From a virus, in IMG/VR virus record IMGVR_UViG_3300045988_094226, positions 1-41,457 of that record: 41,457 bases of DNA; one strand, written 5' to 3'. Both the position numbers and the translations under genes were made by a program. The first letter of the stretch is position 1. Every line of letters starts with the position of its first letter. Positions 12,953 to 41,457 of this stretch are shown piece by piece. Under the pieces are notes generated by a model. That model ran no database searches and was not told the DNA's origin. It saw only the letters and a program-made list of their open reading frames with translations.

Positions 12953-13513
12953 TTATTCATTCGTAAAATCAGAAATAAACTCAAACATACAACTCCCTGT
13001 TTTCAGCATGGAGTTCGGATACATTCCGATTTTACCGTCAGCCGTATACATGCGTGATAAATTGACAAAACCGCCAGAGAGCTCTACATACGCGCCGTAT
13101 CCTTTTTCTTCTTTCGTCAGCACATCGCAGTACATCATCGGATACGTAAGTAATTCATGCTTAACGAATTTAGATTGCAGGTATTTATCAAAGTAAGCCG
13201 TGGCAATGCCGATCGAATTATTGTAAAAATTCAGCCATCTAAACTCTGTTGTATTAGTACCTGTATCAATGCACGAGCATTGCACGGTAAACTTTACACG
13301 CCGATATCCTTCTTCTGTATAACCTACGATTTCGGCAACAACGGTACCGATATGCTGCGTCACAAATCCGATATCCCCTAAAAATTTCTTATTTACGATT
13401 CCGGTTGCTCTGGCTTTCATTCTTTTGTCTACTATTCTGAATTTCGCGCTTCCATCTGTTATTTCCCGCATTTTGTTTACTCCTTTCAATCGTTTGTTAA
13501 ATATACTAAACAC
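12953..13513 (-). CDS. Hypothetical structural protein
   Basis: ORF track, 186 aa. Confidence 0.35.
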   Translation of the reverse strand: MFSIFNKRLKGVNKMREITDGSAKFRIVDKRMKARATGIVNKKFLGDIGFVTQHIGTVVAEIVGYTEEGYRRVKFTVQCSCIDTGTNTTEFRWLNFYNNSIGIATAYFDKYLQSKFVKHELLTYPMMYCDVLTKEEKGYGAYVELSGGFVNLSRMYTADGKIGMYPNSMLKTGSCMFEFISDFTNE

Positions 13514-14574
13514 GCAACAGATTCATGTCCTGGCGATGTAGTATATTCATCCGTATAACTGAGATATAGTTTACCATCTGTATTTATTGTCAATCGTACA
13601 GCTTTACCGTTGCTGTTGTTTATAGGGGCATAAAATTCAAGATTTATAAATGATTCTGGTAGCCCCGATGCAATTTCAATGAGACCTTCCTTTGCACCTT
13701 TCATTCGTACAAAAAGATGCACTATGTTTTTTATTTTTACACATGATAAATTTTCGATATATTGTGGGTCTATAGTCGCATTAATTGTTTCCATCTGTCC
13801 GTAATTATCAAATTTTTCATCAACATATTCTTTTGCAGTTACAGTTTTAACTGTCCACTTCACGCTTCCGTCATTAACTTCTACCCCCCCCGATACGGTT
13901 GACATATTAGGTTCGGTGGCTGCTGTTGTGCCTGCTTGCGTGCATTCAAGATATGCCCATGATGGTAGTTTAGATGAATAGACAATATCGCCGACTTTAT
14001 ATGCTTTCTTGCGTTGCAGTCGATTAACAAACGACGCCGTGGATTCTAAGTCCGTCTGCTCCGCCTTTTTGTCTACTTTTGTTGATACCGCCGCTAAATC
14101 TGTTTGATTCGCTTTCTTTCCAATTTGATTAGAGACCGTTGTTGCGAAATTCGGGTCATTACCAAGCGCGGTTGCCAGTTCATTAAGCGTATCAAGAGTT
14201 TCCGGTGCGGCTCCGACAAGTCCAGATACTGTGTTTTGCACAAACTCTGTATTTGCGATTGTTTTAGAATTGTCACCTGTCGGTGCTGTTGGTGCTGCAC
14301 TCGTACCCGTTACCGCTAATGACTTTGCTTTGACCGTATCAGCATTGACTAAATTAAGGTCACTCGTACCCGTTACCGCTAATGACTTTGCTTTGAAATC
14401 TTTATCATCTGCCGCGCCTTGTTTGTATAGATATTCGATATCGTTCGCGAAATAATCGAATATGCCATCGTTCCCTTTTGTACAGAACGGTGTATTTTTC
14501 CCGAATGCTCCGGGCTGTATGATGTTGTCGTTTTCATCTCTTATTTCCGGATGTTGAAATGTCTGCGGTTTCAT
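13486..14574 (-). CDS. Tail fibre protein with an internal tandem repeat
   Basis: TIANTEFVQNTV phage tail-fibre repeat motif. Duplicated KAKSLAVTGTS segments are encoded by a 36-nt repeat at 14299-14334 and 14353-14388. Confidence 0.6.
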   Translation of the reverse strand: MKPQTFQHPEIRDENDNIIQPGAFGKNTPFCTKGNDGIFDYFANDIEYLYKQGAADDKDFKAKSLAVTGTSDLNLVNADTVKAKSLAVTGTSAAPTAPTGDNSKTIANTEFVQNTVSGLVGAAPETLDTLNELATALGNDPNFATTVSNQIGKKANQTDLAAVSTKVDKKAEQTDLESTASFVNRLQRKKAYKVGDIVYSSKLPSWAYLECTQAGTTAATEPNMSTVSGGVEVNDGSVKWTVKTVTAKEYVDEKFDNYGQMETINATIDPQYIENLSCVKIKNIVHLFVRMKGAKEGLIEIASGLPESFINLEFYAPINNSNGKAVRLTINTDGKLYLSYTDEYTTSPGHESVACLVYLTND

Positions 14575-34890: not shown

Positions 34891-35387
34891 CCGATCCGCA
34901 TCAACCCAATTTTTACTTCAATCGGTATCTTTTCAACATTGAAATGTTCAGAATTCTTTATTATGTCTACTGCCATTTCTTCTGCATCAACAATAATTAC
35001 TCCTGCTTTTGAAAATTTTTCAAGCAACACTTTCTTGATTTTTCCCTCATTTTCTTTGTACATGTTATGCGGAAATGCATAATAGATTGCCTTCGTGTAC
35101 TTTGTCATGTGATTCTCATTCTTTTTAAAATCTGCTAAGAAGTCACTATAACTGGCTTTGATTTCAACCTCCGTTAAATAATCATTTTCATTTAGCCATA
35201 TTAAATCGGCTTCATGTGTAACTCCAGCAAACGGGTATTCATATCCGATAAAGCAACCGTCTTTATCATATTTTTCTATTCTGCATGATGTTCTCGCAAA
35301 ACTAACATTCGGTATTACAATATTTTTATTACCAAAGTGTTCTGCTATTGCATATTGCATTACTGCTTCTTCTTTACTTTTACTCAT
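34863..35387 (-). CDS. PD-(D/E)xK-type nuclease-like protein
   Basis: HEADLIWL...EVEIKAS matches a D...(D/E)xK pattern. Immediately downstream of the C5-MTase. Confidence 0.35.
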   Translation of the reverse strand: MSKSKEEAVMQYAIAEHFGNKNIVIPNVSFARTSCRIEKYDKDGCFIGYEYPFAGVTHEADLIWLNENDYLTEVEIKASYSDFLADFKKNENHMTKYTKAIYYAFPHNMYKENEGKIKKVLLEKFSKAGVIIVDAEEMAVDIIKNSEHFNVEKIPIEVKIGLMRIGCQKWWRRK

Positions 35388-36806
35388 GTCTCTTCCTTAA
35401 TGTCTTCAACCACCTTACTCATTACATAGTCAGCACATGGCTGTGCCATTCCGTTTCCTATTGCTCTGTATCTCGCCGTATCACTCCCGCCCTTTGTCCA
35501 GTTGTCCGGAAGTCCCTGCAGTCTTTCACACTCAAGCGGCGTAAGGCGGCGGACGTAATCTTTAACTATGATCGGATTTTGATAATTGAGACTATATCCT
35601 CCTTGGTTTTTTGCCTGTAATGTCATTGATATCTGCGAAAGTCGACTGTTTCTACAGTCAATCGCATAGGCAACCGCTAATCTTGTTGATGGTTTTAATG
35701 TAGATGTTTTATCCTCATAGATCGGCATGTTGTTTTTTATACTTGCGTCTCTGTTAAATGTGTATATGAGCGGTACTTGATTCCCGCCGGTCCCCATCCT
35801 GTTATTGAGTGTCTGCACTGTTCCGTCATTTCTTTCTCTGATAACGTCTTGCGCATGTGTCATATCGAGAACGCTTATACAGATGCCGCCTTGGTTTCTT
35901 GCTGGATTACTTCCACTTAGATCTAACGTGTTACTTTTGTCTACTTCTTTTATGCCCGCTGTCGGATTGTTGCTTTTCATTCCTTCGCTTTCGTATGATC
36001 CGATTCTGTATGTTTTGATAAGCACGCATCTCTGGTCATGCATGCAGTTCAGCGCTCCTGTTTTTTCTCTCATTCTTATTGAGTTTGTTTGTCCGTTTCC
36101 GATATCATAGACTGATGTTTCAGTACTTGGTACAGCAGTTCGGGTAAGCGTTTCTTTCTTGCTTTCGCTCTTCGCAAAATACCTTGACATGCTTTCGGGC
36201 TCAAATAGTACTTCCGGTCTACCCCCCCCTATTTCTAAAACTTGCAATAAGGAAGATTCTCTCTCGATGCTGGGGGACGCCCCAATATTGAGCGTCGAGG
36301 ACGCGCCATGCGAGGTGACATCTCTTACTTCGTACCATTCCGCTTCTTGCCCATTTTCCAGATCCAGGCATTGGAATATTGGCTTGTGTGATTTCGCTAA
36401 GCACGGCTTGAAAGTCACGCCCTTTGTTGCTTGAAAATGCTCCAAGAACGTTTTCCCAGATAAAGTATTTCGGGTATTCTCCTTTTGTGGCATTGAGCAT
36501 ATCGGAAACAATGTCATTTGCCGTCCTAAATAGTCCGCTTCGTTCACCTTTTAATCCCTCTCTTTTCCCCGCTACCGACAGATCTTGGCACGGGCTCCCC
36601 GCACAGATAATGTCCACTGGTGGTATTTTGTCACCTTTTATTTTTCTGATGTCGCCAAGTTGCATGACGTTCGGAAAGTGTTTTTTTGTGACTTCTATAC
36701 AAAAAGGTTCTATTTCCGATGACCACACGGGAACAGCCCCGTTTCGTTCTGCTGCTATACACCACCCGCCGATTCCGTCAAACAGGCTTCCCACTGTTAT
36801 TTCCAT
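35384..36806 (-). pseudogene. DNA (cytosine-5)-methyltransferase split by a +1/-1 frameshift at a G8 homopolymer (C8 on the plus strand, 36222-36229). Motifs I-VIII lie in the N-terminal ORF (36219-36806) and the TRD plus motifs IX-X lie in the C-terminal frame (35384-36218)
   Basis: FDGIGG (I), GSPCQDLS (IV), ENV (VI), QHRERIFLIA (VIII), then RRLTPLECERLQGLPDNWT (IX/X) in the other frame. Removing one G fuses GG-RPEVLFEPESM in frame. Confidence 0.75.
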
Positions 36807-37244
36807 CTATTTCCCTGTACTTCCCATACCGCCGGTCCTATCACCATCAGCGCTGTCATCATCCACCTTGTAATATTGATTGAATATCCCTTGCGCTATT
36901 CTGTCTCCTACTTTTATAGCGCAAGGCGAACCCGACGTATTTCTAAGCGCCATCATGATATGTCCTTCGTTTTCCGGATTGTTGTAGTAGTCTGAATCAA
37001 TTACCGCCACACTGTTTGCCAAAACAAGCCCATACTTAATTGCAAGGCTTGACCTTATATAGATTCCCAGCCATTCATTTTCATCCATATATGCTTTTAT
37101 CCCCGTTTGAATCAATTTTGTTTCGCCCGGATTGATTACAACATTAACAGCACTTTCAATGTCATACCCTGCTGATTGCTTTGTCTTTCTTTTGGGAAAG
37201 TTTACATATTCATATCCGCTTACTTTTTCAAAACCTCTTCTCAT
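36807..37244 (-). CDS. dut: dUTP diphosphatase
   Basis: AGYDI, IDSDYY, GDRIAQ and C-terminal RTGGMGSTG motifs. Confidence 0.85.
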   Translation of the reverse strand: MRRGFEKVSGYEYVNFPKRKTKQSAGYDIESAVNVVINPGETKLIQTGIKAYMDENEWLGIYIRSSLAIKYGLVLANSVAVIDSDYYNNPENEGHIMMALRNTSGSPCAIKVGDRIAQGIFNQYYKVDDDSADGDRTGGMGSTGK

Positions 37245-38636: not shown

Positions 38637-38926
38637 TGAATACCTCCTATATCTCTTATGTACCGTTTATATCCGTTTTTTATTCTTTCAAACTCAATGG
38701 CCATCATGATTTCTTGCGGACCATCTTCATATACTTTCTTAATGGCTGCTTTTATGATGACTATCGGGCTGGTAATCAGTGTTATCAGTGACGCCAATAT
38801 TACTACACCGGCTATGGTTATCAGAGCGGCAATCGCTCTTCCCACTCTGCACGGAATCATACCGTATACAAGCTTCTGCCATTTCCTATAACCTTTATAT
38901 GCATTGATATAATCTATTTCGTTCAT
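38633..38926 (-). CDS. Membrane protein, hypothetical
   Basis: TM AIAALITIAGVVILASLITLITSPIVII. ATGA coupling. Confidence 0.35.
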   Translation of the reverse strand: MNEIDYINAYKGYRKWQKLVYGMIPCRVGRAIAALITIAGVVILASLITLITSPIVIIKAAIKKVYEDGPQEIMMAIEFERIKNGYKRYIRDIGGIQ

Positions 38927-41424
38927 TTTCCCTCCATGAAATCAAAGAGTGTCGGTGTTTCCTGGTTATCTTCTTCCCGCTTGAGATACCAGCATCCGTC
39001 ACGGTAGTATTCCGGATTGAGTTCTATTCCTATGCCTTTCCGCCCTGCTTTCATGGCTTCCAGCGGTACTGTCATCAGTCCGCCGAAGGGGTCAAGCACG
39101 GTTTCTCCTTCGTTTGTGTACCGGTTAATCAGTCGGTCTACTATGTCAAACTGGAGAGGACAGAGGTGCATTTGTTTTCTCCTTTGTGATTGTTCTGTGT
39201 TGAGTGTTCTCATACGGTTCACATCGTCCCACACGTCAGGAGACCAGCTCGCTGGATCTATGCACATAAATGTCGCGGGCAGTTTGTTTTTTTCGTCCAT
39301 CGCATTGGCCATCTCTACATGCTTATCAAAGTCATACACGGTTTCTTTACTGTATTTGTTGTACAGTTTTCGTATATCCGATATGGGCATGTCTTTTAGG
39401 TCGTCAACGGACAGCTGCCTGTTTCCGCTGCTTCTCCAGAATGCATGAGCGTCTAATTGCCATTGCCCGCGGGTATATTCTTCTTTACTCTTTGTGACAG
39501 GTGTATCTGCATAGGCTCTTGATGTATCCGTAGGGAGCTTTCTGAACAGCAGGATGTATTCCGGGCAGCCTACTCCCATTTTTGTTCCGTCCTTGCACTG
39601 CTCCGTCCATCCAAGACGGTATGTCTGATTGTTCTCCCGAACCACGTCGGTTATGACGGTTATCATGCCGAAGAATTGGAAGCCGTGTTTCATGTAGTGC
39701 ATGATGGTCAATGCATGGAACGGTTCTATGGTTGGCATGCCTGTTCCCGTTGCGTTCCCGAATAGTACACGGTCTTTCACGTGGCATGCATATACTCTTC
39801 CGGGCTTCAAAATTCTAAGTAAATTCGGCGTTAAATAATCCATCTGCTCAAAAAATTTGTCTGTATTTTCGTTATGCCCGAAATCGTTATAGCTTGCGCA
39901 GTATTCATAGTGATTTCCAAACGGAATTGATGTAAGAAGCATGTCCACTGAGTTATCTTGCATTTTCCCCGTTTCTTCAACACAGTCGCCATGTATCGCG
40001 ATGTAGTTTTTCCCTTTTGTTATGACTTCTTCCACGCCTATACTCCTTTGCATCTCAATGATGGCATCGTTTCTTGACAGTCCATATTTCCTGACTATTT
40101 CTTCCATGCTTTCCGTGAGTTTGTTATATTGCTCCCATTTCTTTTTCAGTACTTCTAGCACCTGCTGTTCTGTTTCCATGTATATGATGTCTATAATGAC
40201 AGGTTTTATTTGTAGGAAGCGGTAACACCGGTGGATGGCTTGGATAAAGTCGTTAAACTCATAGTCAATCCCCATAAATATCTGGCGATGGCAATGTTTT
40301 TGGAAGTTACATCCGCTCCCTGATAGTTCTTTTTTTGTAGCAAGGATACGAAAGTCTCCCTTTGAAAAGCCGATGGTGTTTCTTTCTCTTTCGTCCATAT
40401 CTTGTGAGCCGTAGATAAATTTAGCTTCTGGGATTGCATATTTGATGGCATGACGCTCGCTTTCCAGATCGTGCCATATAATGAAATGTTCATCAGGTGA
40501 TTCGTCGATAATCCGTTTGGTTTCTGCCAGCCTGACATCGATGCTCTCTCTTTTCTCTCTGGCCGCTGCCGAAAGTCCCACGGCAAAGTCTTTTATAAGT
40601 TTGACCTGCCCGTTCTTTTCTTCTTCATTCACGGGTTTTGTGTTTGCCAGCATGTGGTAATTCACTTGCAGTGGCGGAAGGTTATATCCTTCATCGCTGT
40701 ACCCCAGATCAGAGGGCTTTTGAATAAATAATGCCCAGGTAGATAGCCACAGCCAGAATTCTTTTTCTTTATGCGGATAGAGAGTGAGGTTATTTGCTTT
40801 TGTACTGTCCCGCTGAAAGAAGCGTGTTAATGCCTGCCCCGTATCCATAACTTCCAAGTATCCGCCATAGTGAATAAGTTCTTTATATCTATTTGGCGCA
40901 GGTGTAGCCGTGGCAACAAGTTTATATTTCACGCCTTTAAATTTTGGCAGAAATGTCTGATATGTTTTGCTGCCGAAGCTTCTTAAAACGGACGCTTCGT
41001 CTAAGCTGCATGCCGTGAAGTAGTGAGGATCTATATCTCCGTCACGAACTCTTTCATAGTTTGTAATTACTATTCTGTTATCTGCGGCTTTGACTTCTTC
41101 CATATTTCTTACATATGTCGGAGCAGGGATATTGAGCAGATGAACCGCGTCTTCCGCAAATTCCTGCTTGACCCCCAACGGACAGACAATCAACGCTTTA
41201 CCGCCTATTTTCTTAGTGAGTACACGTCACCATTCCAATTGCTGTATACTCTTCCCCAGCCCGAATGCTTCAAACAATGCCCTGCGCCCGCCTTTGAGCG
41301 CCCACAAGACAGCATCTCTTTGATGTGGTTTCAAGACGGAACTTATATCCGCCGGACTGACTTCTATTCCTGATACTGGTGCTTTTATCACTTTATCTTT
41401 CAAAAATTCTATGTATGATTTCAT
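38923..41424 (-). pseudogene. SNF2-family helicase fused to a C-terminal N6/N4 DNA methyltransferase domain, interrupted by one in-frame TGA (about 41227-41229) between helicase motifs I and Ia. Either read through or a pseudogene
   Basis: LKPHQRDAVLWAL...GLGKSIQQLEW-TGA-RVLTKKIGGKALIVCP. DEAS box (SLDEASVL). C-terminal VLDPFGGLMTV AdoMet motif and SIPF catalytic-like motif. TGA is otherwise used as a stop in this genome (ATGA overlaps). Confidence 0.7.
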
Positions 41425-41457
41425 GTTCTTCTCCTCGGCTTGTCTCTTGCCTGTTTC

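Follow-up and report, generated by a model that had tools for sequence, protein, structure and literature searches.

A length-variable poly-G tract at a domain junction of a C5-cytosine methyltransferase gene in a temperate gut phage: a candidate contingency locus with three outcomes

In Haemophilus, Neisseria, Helicobacter and Campylobacter, phasevarions depend on homopolymers or short repeats within mod genes of Type III systems, hsd genes of Type I systems and certain Type II genes. Among phages, hypermutable poly-G tracts have been described in the receptor-binding genes of Campylobacter Fletchervirus (Sorensen et al. 2021, as cited in PMC12823448 and PMC12633550), T2 and T4 were reported in 2025 to carry contingency loci, and a poly-G run in the methylase gene of Bordetella phage BPP-1 was noted and not studied further (PMC12633550). 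Here, a run of eight guanines (G8) is described within a C5-cytosine methyltransferase (C5-MTase) gene on the minus strand of IMG/VR virus record IMGVR_UViG_3300045988_094226, which was analysed as one stretch from position 1 to position 41,457 (41,457 nucleotides, hereafter the window). The run is likely to be a hypermutable contingency tract in an orphan C5-MTase of a temperate gut phage, situated at the junction between the catalytic core and the variable region, where its length would pick one of three reading frames.

Two described C5-MTases are of particular relevance to the architecture of this gene. In M.EcoHK31I, the gene for the beta polypeptide sits in an alternative frame within the alpha gene. 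This small beta polypeptide supplies motif IX (PMC3404938). C5-MTases can also be active when divided into two polypeptides within the proximal variable region, as in the two-subunit enzyme M.AquI, where the alpha subunit carries motifs I-VIII and the proximal variable region and the beta subunit the distal variable region and motifs IX-X (PMC3404938).

A preliminary description of the window had proposed that a frameshift at the G8 run splits the C5-MTase gene between motif VIII and the target-recognition domain. This is confirmed on the minus strand, which reads AGAAATA-GGGGGGGG-TAGACCGG, with a TAG codon (36219-36221) abutting the run; the interval first assigned to the feature, 36219-36232, comprises the run, this stop codon and three bases upstream. 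The 195-residue open reading frame (ORF) that ends here matches PF00145 at positions 2-160 of 324 (E 2e-38) and aligns to M.HhaI up to FRN, where the alignment stops. The frame that lies beyond the run matches PF00145 again at positions 262-322 (E 7e-11), which covers motifs IX-X. Removal of one G in silico (G7) joins the two into a 473-residue protein that is matched by PF00145 end to end (E 1e-51) and scores 164 bits against TIGR00675 dcm (cut-off 100.65). A natural, gap-free relative of 473 residues is 95% identical, and full-length relatives read FRNRGG followed by RPEVLFEPES across the junction, exactly as the G7 reconstruction does. As they pass straight from the one into the other, a double frameshift leading from the core through the KYYLS frame into the C-terminal frame was ruled out. 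An uninterrupted single-chain C5-MTase is encoded by the G7 reconstruction and by natural G7 relatives, and not by the G8 allele of the window. The earlier expectation that G7 or G10 would restore about 470 residues holds in length for G7, while G10 is workable on paper and was not seen in the clade of the window. A mechanical ORF of 387 residues also spans the junction (Table 1); the +1 frame over the N-terminal domain accounts for its first ~110 codons and the C-terminal frame for the remainder, and many entries of this length, which are split-state ORFs, occur in the database.

The poly-G run is not a chance feature. Runs of exactly five G or C occur 19 times in the window and runs of eight twice, with none of six or seven. 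Only two of the 42 Gly-Gly dipeptides encoded in the window use GGG-GGG, and both are at the two G8 runs. From the phage's own codon usage, the chance of Arg-Gly-Gly being written as AGG GGG GGN is ~0.03.

The tract varies in length among near-identical phages. In total, 80 loci from IMG/VR and 45 from metagenomes were gathered. The clade of the window itself, at 90% identity or more (clade 1), comprises 48 loci with the window included. Within clade 1, G7 is the commonest allele (28 loci), alongside 13 loci with G8, four with A+G6 and three with G6; G9 is represented by two proteins (P0244 and P0245) and, at the DNA level, by locus L198. Once duplicate contigs are removed, 35 flank haplotypes are left, with roughly 27 in frame, 12 G8 and 2 G6. 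Members of 195, 240/243 and 473-487 residues fall together in single protein clusters drawn at 90% identity. The fixed in-frame tract length in related genomes that the preliminary description had named as the case against a switch is not what is found, since G6, G7, G8 and G9 all occur at 90% identity or more.

These states interleave on the clade-1 tree and imply at least ~8-10 changes of length, with six in clade 2, its sister at ~70% identity. The tree was built by neighbour joining from ungapped segments, so that the long branches of L016/L017 and of L046 are to be read as a register artefact. The closest comparisons isolate the tract itself: two G7 loci (L012 and L014) and a G8 locus (L022) show 0/720 flank differences, and a G8 locus (L001) differs from a G7 locus (L026) at 1/720. 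Across 42 clade-1 loci, the tract is the sole length-variable site within 745 nucleotides of the gene, and the nearby C5 and G5 runs, as well as an A7 lying ~458 nucleotides upstream within the gene, are invariant. Further, 15 out-of-frame alleles (12 G8 and three G6) could be followed past motif X; in every one of them the C-terminal frame is uninterrupted up to and including that motif, and none carries a second lesion.

More distant lineages keep the tract despite its unusual codon choice. It lies at the same codon in clade 2, where roughly 15 loci have G7, 9-11 have G8 and 8 have G9, and a third lineage, ~64% identical, carries G10 there. The tract is hypervariable in near-identical phages, is conserved across lineages and sets the reading frame; at the level of sequence, these are the hallmarks of a contingency (phase-variable) locus. 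In the clade-2 loci L028-L046, a second variable poly-G was observed in the beta ORF, ~230 nucleotides downstream of the first (KAAGG(G).YGGGSENY); it is G8 in L036, G7 in L040 and L046, and G5 with other bases in L031 and L033, and in some loci it shifts the beta frame independently of the first tract.

Both frames that can follow the tract are real, as the fusion frame is used by full-length relatives and the other, the tail frame, is conserved in alpha proteins. The tail comprises 48 conserved codons; in relatives that are split by nature, it extends the alpha subunit at its C-terminus. In clade 1, the 60 nucleotides after the tract have entropies by phase of 0.05, 0.48 and 0.13, the variable phase being the wobble position of the tail frame and the first codon position of the fusion frame, and clade 2 shows the same phase pattern. 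Twenty tract-less relatives with continuous genes gave entropies at codon positions 1/2/3 of 0.37/0.25/0.90 in the N-terminal domain and 0.35/0.28/1.16 in motifs IX-X, and of 0.84/0.40/0.30 in the linker. Synonymous variability at conserved residues in these relatives is 0.16 in the tail, 0.82 upstream of it and ~1.0 elsewhere. Collectively, these patterns indicate purifying selection on the tail frame and not on the fusion frame. In the predicted structure of P0264, a natural single chain with the tail in frame, the N-terminal domain has predicted local distance difference test scores of 83-94 and the tail is a helix-loop-helix with scores of 67-80; the model leaves the target-recognition region unresolved. 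The tail was considered as a copy of motif IX and this was rejected, as hhalign gave a probability of 0.08% against the motif IX-X region and the main frame has a motif IX of its own. Searches of the tail in Pfam and in PDB sequences gave no match, and it weakly matches PHROG 16143, annotated as DNA methyltransferase.

The tail frame also leads to a second architecture. Proteins composed of the N-terminal domain and the tail (224-251 residues; for example P0242-P0250 and P0253) are abundant in clade 1 and in more distant lineages, in clusters of up to 378 members. In L196 and L197, an alpha gene (237 residues in L196) is followed by a 127-residue beta gene (PF00145) through an ATGA stop/start overlap, and in the clade-1 G9 allele L198 an alpha of 240 residues and a beta of 219 residues are called as separate genes. 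All clade-1 loci examined conserve a Met/ATG, with the tail stop placed 3-15 nucleotides before it, and in clade 2 the tail stop overlaps ATGATG. The G8 alpha of the window is without the tail and has lost the coupling to the C-terminal half; a two-subunit layout would need G6 or G9.

Based on these observations, a switch with three outcomes can be proposed. Slipped-strand gain or loss of single Gs at replication would change the frame after the core. At G7, the core is fused via a linker of ~40 codons to the target-recognition modules and motifs IX-X, and the resulting 473-residue chain would be active as a single-chain enzyme. At G6 or G9, the core reads into the 48-codon helix-loop-helix tail and stops, and the C-terminal half would restart at the conserved ATG 3-15 nucleotides on; such alleles would give an alpha/beta enzyme of the M.AquI kind, an architecture found in relatives, with the two subunits presumably coupled by termination-reinitiation. 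At G8, the core stops at the TAG right after the run, tail-less and uncoupled from the C-terminal half, which would amount to a null or strongly reduced state. A population of lysogens or virions would then mix methylating and non-methylating genomes, a form of bet-hedging against host restriction and methylation-dependent defences. The preliminary description had taken the methylase to be a candidate for phase variation and to be switched off. Variation from G6 to G9 among close relatives, with repeated changes, agrees with the former, and the frame is indeed broken at G8; what does not stand is a simple ON/OFF switch, as the G7 and G6/G9 states both look productive. The G8 allele itself is probably inactive.

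Table 1. Positions of the features discussed, in window coordinates.
Feature	Position	Strand	Remark
Poly-G tract, G8 here	36222-36229	-	Putative hypermutable site; sets the downstream reading frame; basis: sequence and alleles of relatives
N-terminal ORF (alpha core), 195 residues, C5-MTase catalytic core motifs I-VIII	36219-36806	-	PF00145
Motif I, FDGIGG	36765-36782	-	Within the 195-residue ORF
Motif IV, GSPCQ	36585-36599	-	Within the 195-residue ORF
Motif VI, ENV	36447-36455	-	Within the 195-residue ORF
Motif VIII, QHRERIF	36252-36272	-	Within the 195-residue ORF
Fusion frame: linker RPEVLFEPES..., modular target-recognition region, motifs IX and X	35384-36220	-	Joined to the N-terminal domain at G7
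Motif IX, RRLTPLECERLQGLPDNW	35498-35551	-	In the fusion frame
Motif X, AIGNGMAQP	35438-35464	-	In the fusion frame
Tail frame, VDRKYYLSPKACQGILRRAKARKKRLPELLYQVLKHQSMISETDKQTQ, then TAA (36076-36078)	36076-36222	-	In frame with the N-terminal domain only at G6 or G9
Conserved ATG (M of SIRMREK), 3 nucleotides past the tail TAA	36071-36073	-	Candidate beta start
Putative beta subunit from the ATG, 229 residues	35384-36073	-	
TTG in the fusion frame, 29 nucleotides upstream of the alpha ORF end	36245-36247	-	Candidate restart; 287-residue C-terminal fragment at G8
Mechanical 387-residue ORF, GTG start (P0016)	35384-36547	-	Confined to G8 alleles

Several points weigh against this three-outcome reading. 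G8 makes up ~27-29% of the sample, which is high for a pure null unless the OFF state is often favoured or G8 keeps some function. Selection on the tail frame is present even in tract-less continuous genes, for which the model offers no route of translation. Further, all allele counts come from consensus contigs, and some loci in different collections are the same contig, as seven pairs with identical flanks attest. The weakest step is the equation of G8 with the off state, because C5-MTases tolerate bisection in the proximal variable region and candidate restarts exist, namely the TTG and the conserved ATG of Table 1.

The best-surviving alternative builds on exactly this step. It holds that G8 is not off and that the 195-residue core and a C-terminal fragment translated separately from either of these starts form an active split enzyme, so that the tract tunes architecture or expression. 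Gene callers do place a C-terminal ORF across the alpha stop in G8 loci, and in L200 and L201 the equivalent of the TTG was chosen as its start (297 residues, overlapping the alpha stop). G8 alleles are also common and never decayed, and the ATG is conserved. However, the alpha protein would lack the conserved tail, which is strongly selected wherever alpha is separate, and the alpha stop lies ~145 nucleotides upstream of the conserved ATG, so that termination-reinitiation coupling is lost. In the window, neither candidate start is preceded by a convincing Shine-Dalgarno sequence. On balance, an active split enzyme at G8 is judged unlikely.

A second alternative places the switch in expression rather than in DNA. 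By programmed recoding, either RNA polymerase slippage or ribosomal frameshifting on the run, every allele would make a mix of truncated, tail-bearing and fused products, and the DNA length would only shift their ratios. A run of 7-10 G is intrinsically slippery; with TAG occupying the A site at G8, tRNA-Gly on GGG would enter the tail frame by slipping -1 and the fusion frame by slipping +1. All three frames stay usable in all alleles, and recoding could account for the tail-frame selection in G7 genomes. It leaves the same selection unexplained in tract-less relatives, though, where there is no slippery run, and the RNA downstream of the run showed no stimulatory structure (z = +0.59 and -0.21 relative to shuffled sequences). 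Moreover, the polymorphism at the DNA level is abundant and sufficient alone. Recoding is therefore improbable as the full account, but recoding on the run may contribute.

It is very unlikely that the window carries a fixed, decaying pseudogene left by the irreversible loss of a dispensable methylase. Orphan methylases belong to the accessory genes of phages and the allele of the window makes no full-length product, but G8 alleles are scattered on the tree beside G7 alleles with identical flanks, the 15 out-of-frame alleles are free of any second lesion, and the tract is conserved over lineages at 64-100% identity. The remaining alternative, a sequencing or assembly error in a gene that is truly G7 and intact, had been raised in the preliminary description and is hardly credible: homopolymers are error-prone and assemblies of this genome family differ at the second G8 too, but 14 contigs, among them a scaffold of 272 kb, carry the exact 195-residue G8 product and come from at least seven samples and independent studies in three sources (JGI, Logan and ENA), out-of-frame alleles reach ~33% in clade 1 and ~55% in clade 2, far above consensus error rates, high-coverage contigs are included (548x and 1704x in some contig names), the A7 run in the same gene does not vary, and tract length is concordant in 7/7 pairs of duplicate contigs.

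The selection seen in tract-less relatives invites a broader conjecture, which is tentative and which we would not bet on as it stands. The ~45 codons past motif VIII might be a dual-coding module in thousands of prophage C5-MTase genes, serving in one frame as a linker of little sequence preference that makes a single chain, and in the other as the conserved helix-loop-helix tail of an alpha subunit. Poly-G would have evolved there repeatedly to flip between the architectures and a null state, and tract-less genes would express the tail by another route, such as +1 recoding or internal initiation, as a second product with a function of its own, for example in regulating or re-targeting methylation. 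A long overlapping gene was considered and rejected. In relatives without the tract, the +1 frame runs for 150-200 codons free of stops, and synonymous-codon shuffles gave a mean of ~100 and maxima of 200-300; the openness is weakly unusual, not significant against the shuffles, and synonymous constraint is limited to the tail. Likewise, ~4000 small 'standalone' proteins matching the tail profile turned out to be gene-caller calls of the +1 frame inside methylase genes and not free-standing genes. One such call is the 131-residue 'hypothetical protein' P0176 in a prophage of Heyndrickxia oleronia (locus L081, GCA_035809575.1, JARSIU010000021.1, 4001-4396), which is the +1 frame in a continuous C5-MTase ORF. 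Many small database entries (63-133 residues) are calls of this overlapping frame and would be either mis-annotations or a genuine second product. Locus L082 (3417-4001) has a different frameshift, in the N-terminal domain after motif VI and before motif VIII, where no homopolymer was noted; either true pseudogene formation or faulty assembly could account for it.

The genome in the window is that of a temperate phage of siphovirus type, with an integrase, a large terminase, a portal and a tail fibre. The integrase, together with a G8 allele on a 272-kb scaffold, is in keeping with the lysogeny assumed in the preliminary description. No close relative was found in GTDB representative genomes, where only prophages of Selenomonas, Megamonas and Megasphaera at 70% identity or less were recovered, nor is there a close phage record among GenBank phages; the host is probably a member of the Negativicutes. 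In the replication module, the genes run in the order helicase/N6-N4 methylase, single-stranded DNA-binding protein (SSB), dUTPase and C5-MTase. In the first of these, a 756-residue helicase-like ORF (38923-41193, minus strand; PHROG 16, DNA helicase), a match to PF01555 (E 2e-17) marks an N6/N4 DNA methylase domain, so that the phage encodes at least two DNA methyltransferases. No restriction-enzyme-like gene lies next to the C5-MTase, whose neighbours are the dUTPase, the SSB gene, unknowns and a sub-threshold match to an MmcB-like nuclease (21.2 bits against a cut-off of 22); an HNH gene adjoins the terminase and not the methylase. Its earlier description as an orphan methylase is reasonable on these grounds.

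The surroundings of the gene are mosaic. The dUTPase stop abuts the methylase start at 36804-36809 (TAGATG), and P0069 (386 residues, PF00692 and PF00145) is a read-through fusion of dUTPase, methylase and tail whose methylase part is 100% identical to that of the window. The dUTPase, a block of 444 nucleotides lying from ~1030 to 590 nucleotides upstream of the tract, is missing in 15/42 close clade-1 loci, and further blocks between the SSB gene and the methylase likewise occur in some loci and not in others, so that this module is a mosaic. The variable region of the methylase is itself modular. Relatives at 80-89% identity differ in which in-frame blocks of ~30-60 residues they possess, a TL dipeptide being found in every block, and some end in a different final block; lengths include 400, 422, 442-454, 473 and 483 residues. 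Multispecific C5-MTases of Bacillus phages, of the SPR and phi3T type, carry tandem target-recognising domains in their variable region. At the sequence level, the block modularity seen here resembles this arrangement.

The second G8 run of the window (13884-13891, minus strand) lies in frame in a 362-residue tail-fibre ORF (13486-14574, minus strand; ...STVSGGVEVN..., residue ~228), before the C-terminal module. Among IMG/VR relatives gathered by a protein-based search, G8 is in frame in ~11-13 loci, G7 in six loci leads to SGG and then TAG, G9 also occurs, and some relatives are tract-less. The fibre and methylase tracts share a G(n)-TAGA design. The fibre tract is likely to be a second contingency locus, one that would affect the receptor-binding end of the fibre. 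It had been considered as a control for assembly noise in the methylase tract and was unusable since it varies too; the A7, C5 and G5 runs served instead. In the tract-less relatives L158, L162, L164 and L192, the N-terminal part of the fibre runs into ...EITDGSAKFR(I/V)VDKR..., which is the sequence of the next downstream ORF in the window (12953-13513, minus strand; MFSIF...REITDGSAKFRIVDKR...). This points to alternative modules for the C-terminal end of the fibre, which would be fused to it in some phages and encoded separately in others.

Phage methylases protect DNA from host restriction and can expose the phage to methylation-dependent defences. With a switch that is heritable and yet quickly reversed, a temperate gut phage would be able to hedge between both risks, and its lysogens would be epigenetically mixed. 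Together, the methylase and tail-fibre tracts suggest that contingency loci occur in common human-gut prophages, beyond the Campylobacter and T-even phages. The junction would also allow the single-chain and the two-subunit form of one C5-MTase to be compared in a natural setting where they differ by one nucleotide. Further, the selection on an alternative frame in continuous genes offers a concrete case of hidden overlapping coding, which bears on the annotation of thousands of genes and of the small 'hypothetical proteins' internal to them.

The locus resembles phasevarions in that a repeat inside a methyltransferase ORF varies in length among close relatives and sets the frame, by which the population would become epigenetically mixed. 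It differs from them in being a phage-borne orphan C5-MTase rather than a chromosomal mod or hsd gene, in having its tract at an internal domain junction and not near the 5' end, and in that two of the three frames would give plausible enzymes, fused or alpha/beta. The likeness to the loci of Fletchervirus, T2 and T4 is that homopolymer tracts in phages frameshift phage genes and create subpopulations, and the G8 in the tail fibre of the window would be a direct analogue. However, those are lytic phages of Proteobacteria in which mostly host-range and defence-evasion genes are concerned, whereas here the phage is a temperate gut phage and the target a methylase. With BPP-1, the locus shares a poly-G run within a phage methylase gene.

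Among C5-MTases, the split of M.AquI recurs in the G6/G9 alleles and in relatives without the tract, for example L196, with coupled or overlapping alpha stop and beta start. Unlike in M.AquI, the same DNA can here also be read as a single chain, and the alpha tail and the fusion linker share nucleotides in two frames between which the poly-G would choose. As in M.EcoHK31I, a functional peptide appears to come from an alternative frame inside a C5-MTase gene; the tail, however, is not motif IX, which the main frame carries itself. The novelty lies in the phage, a temperate one that is widespread in the human gut, in the gene affected, which encodes an orphan C5-MTase of modular build, and most of all in the design of the junction, in which one stretch of nucleotides appears to hold two functional frames and the length of the tract would select a single-chain, a two-subunit or a truncated state.

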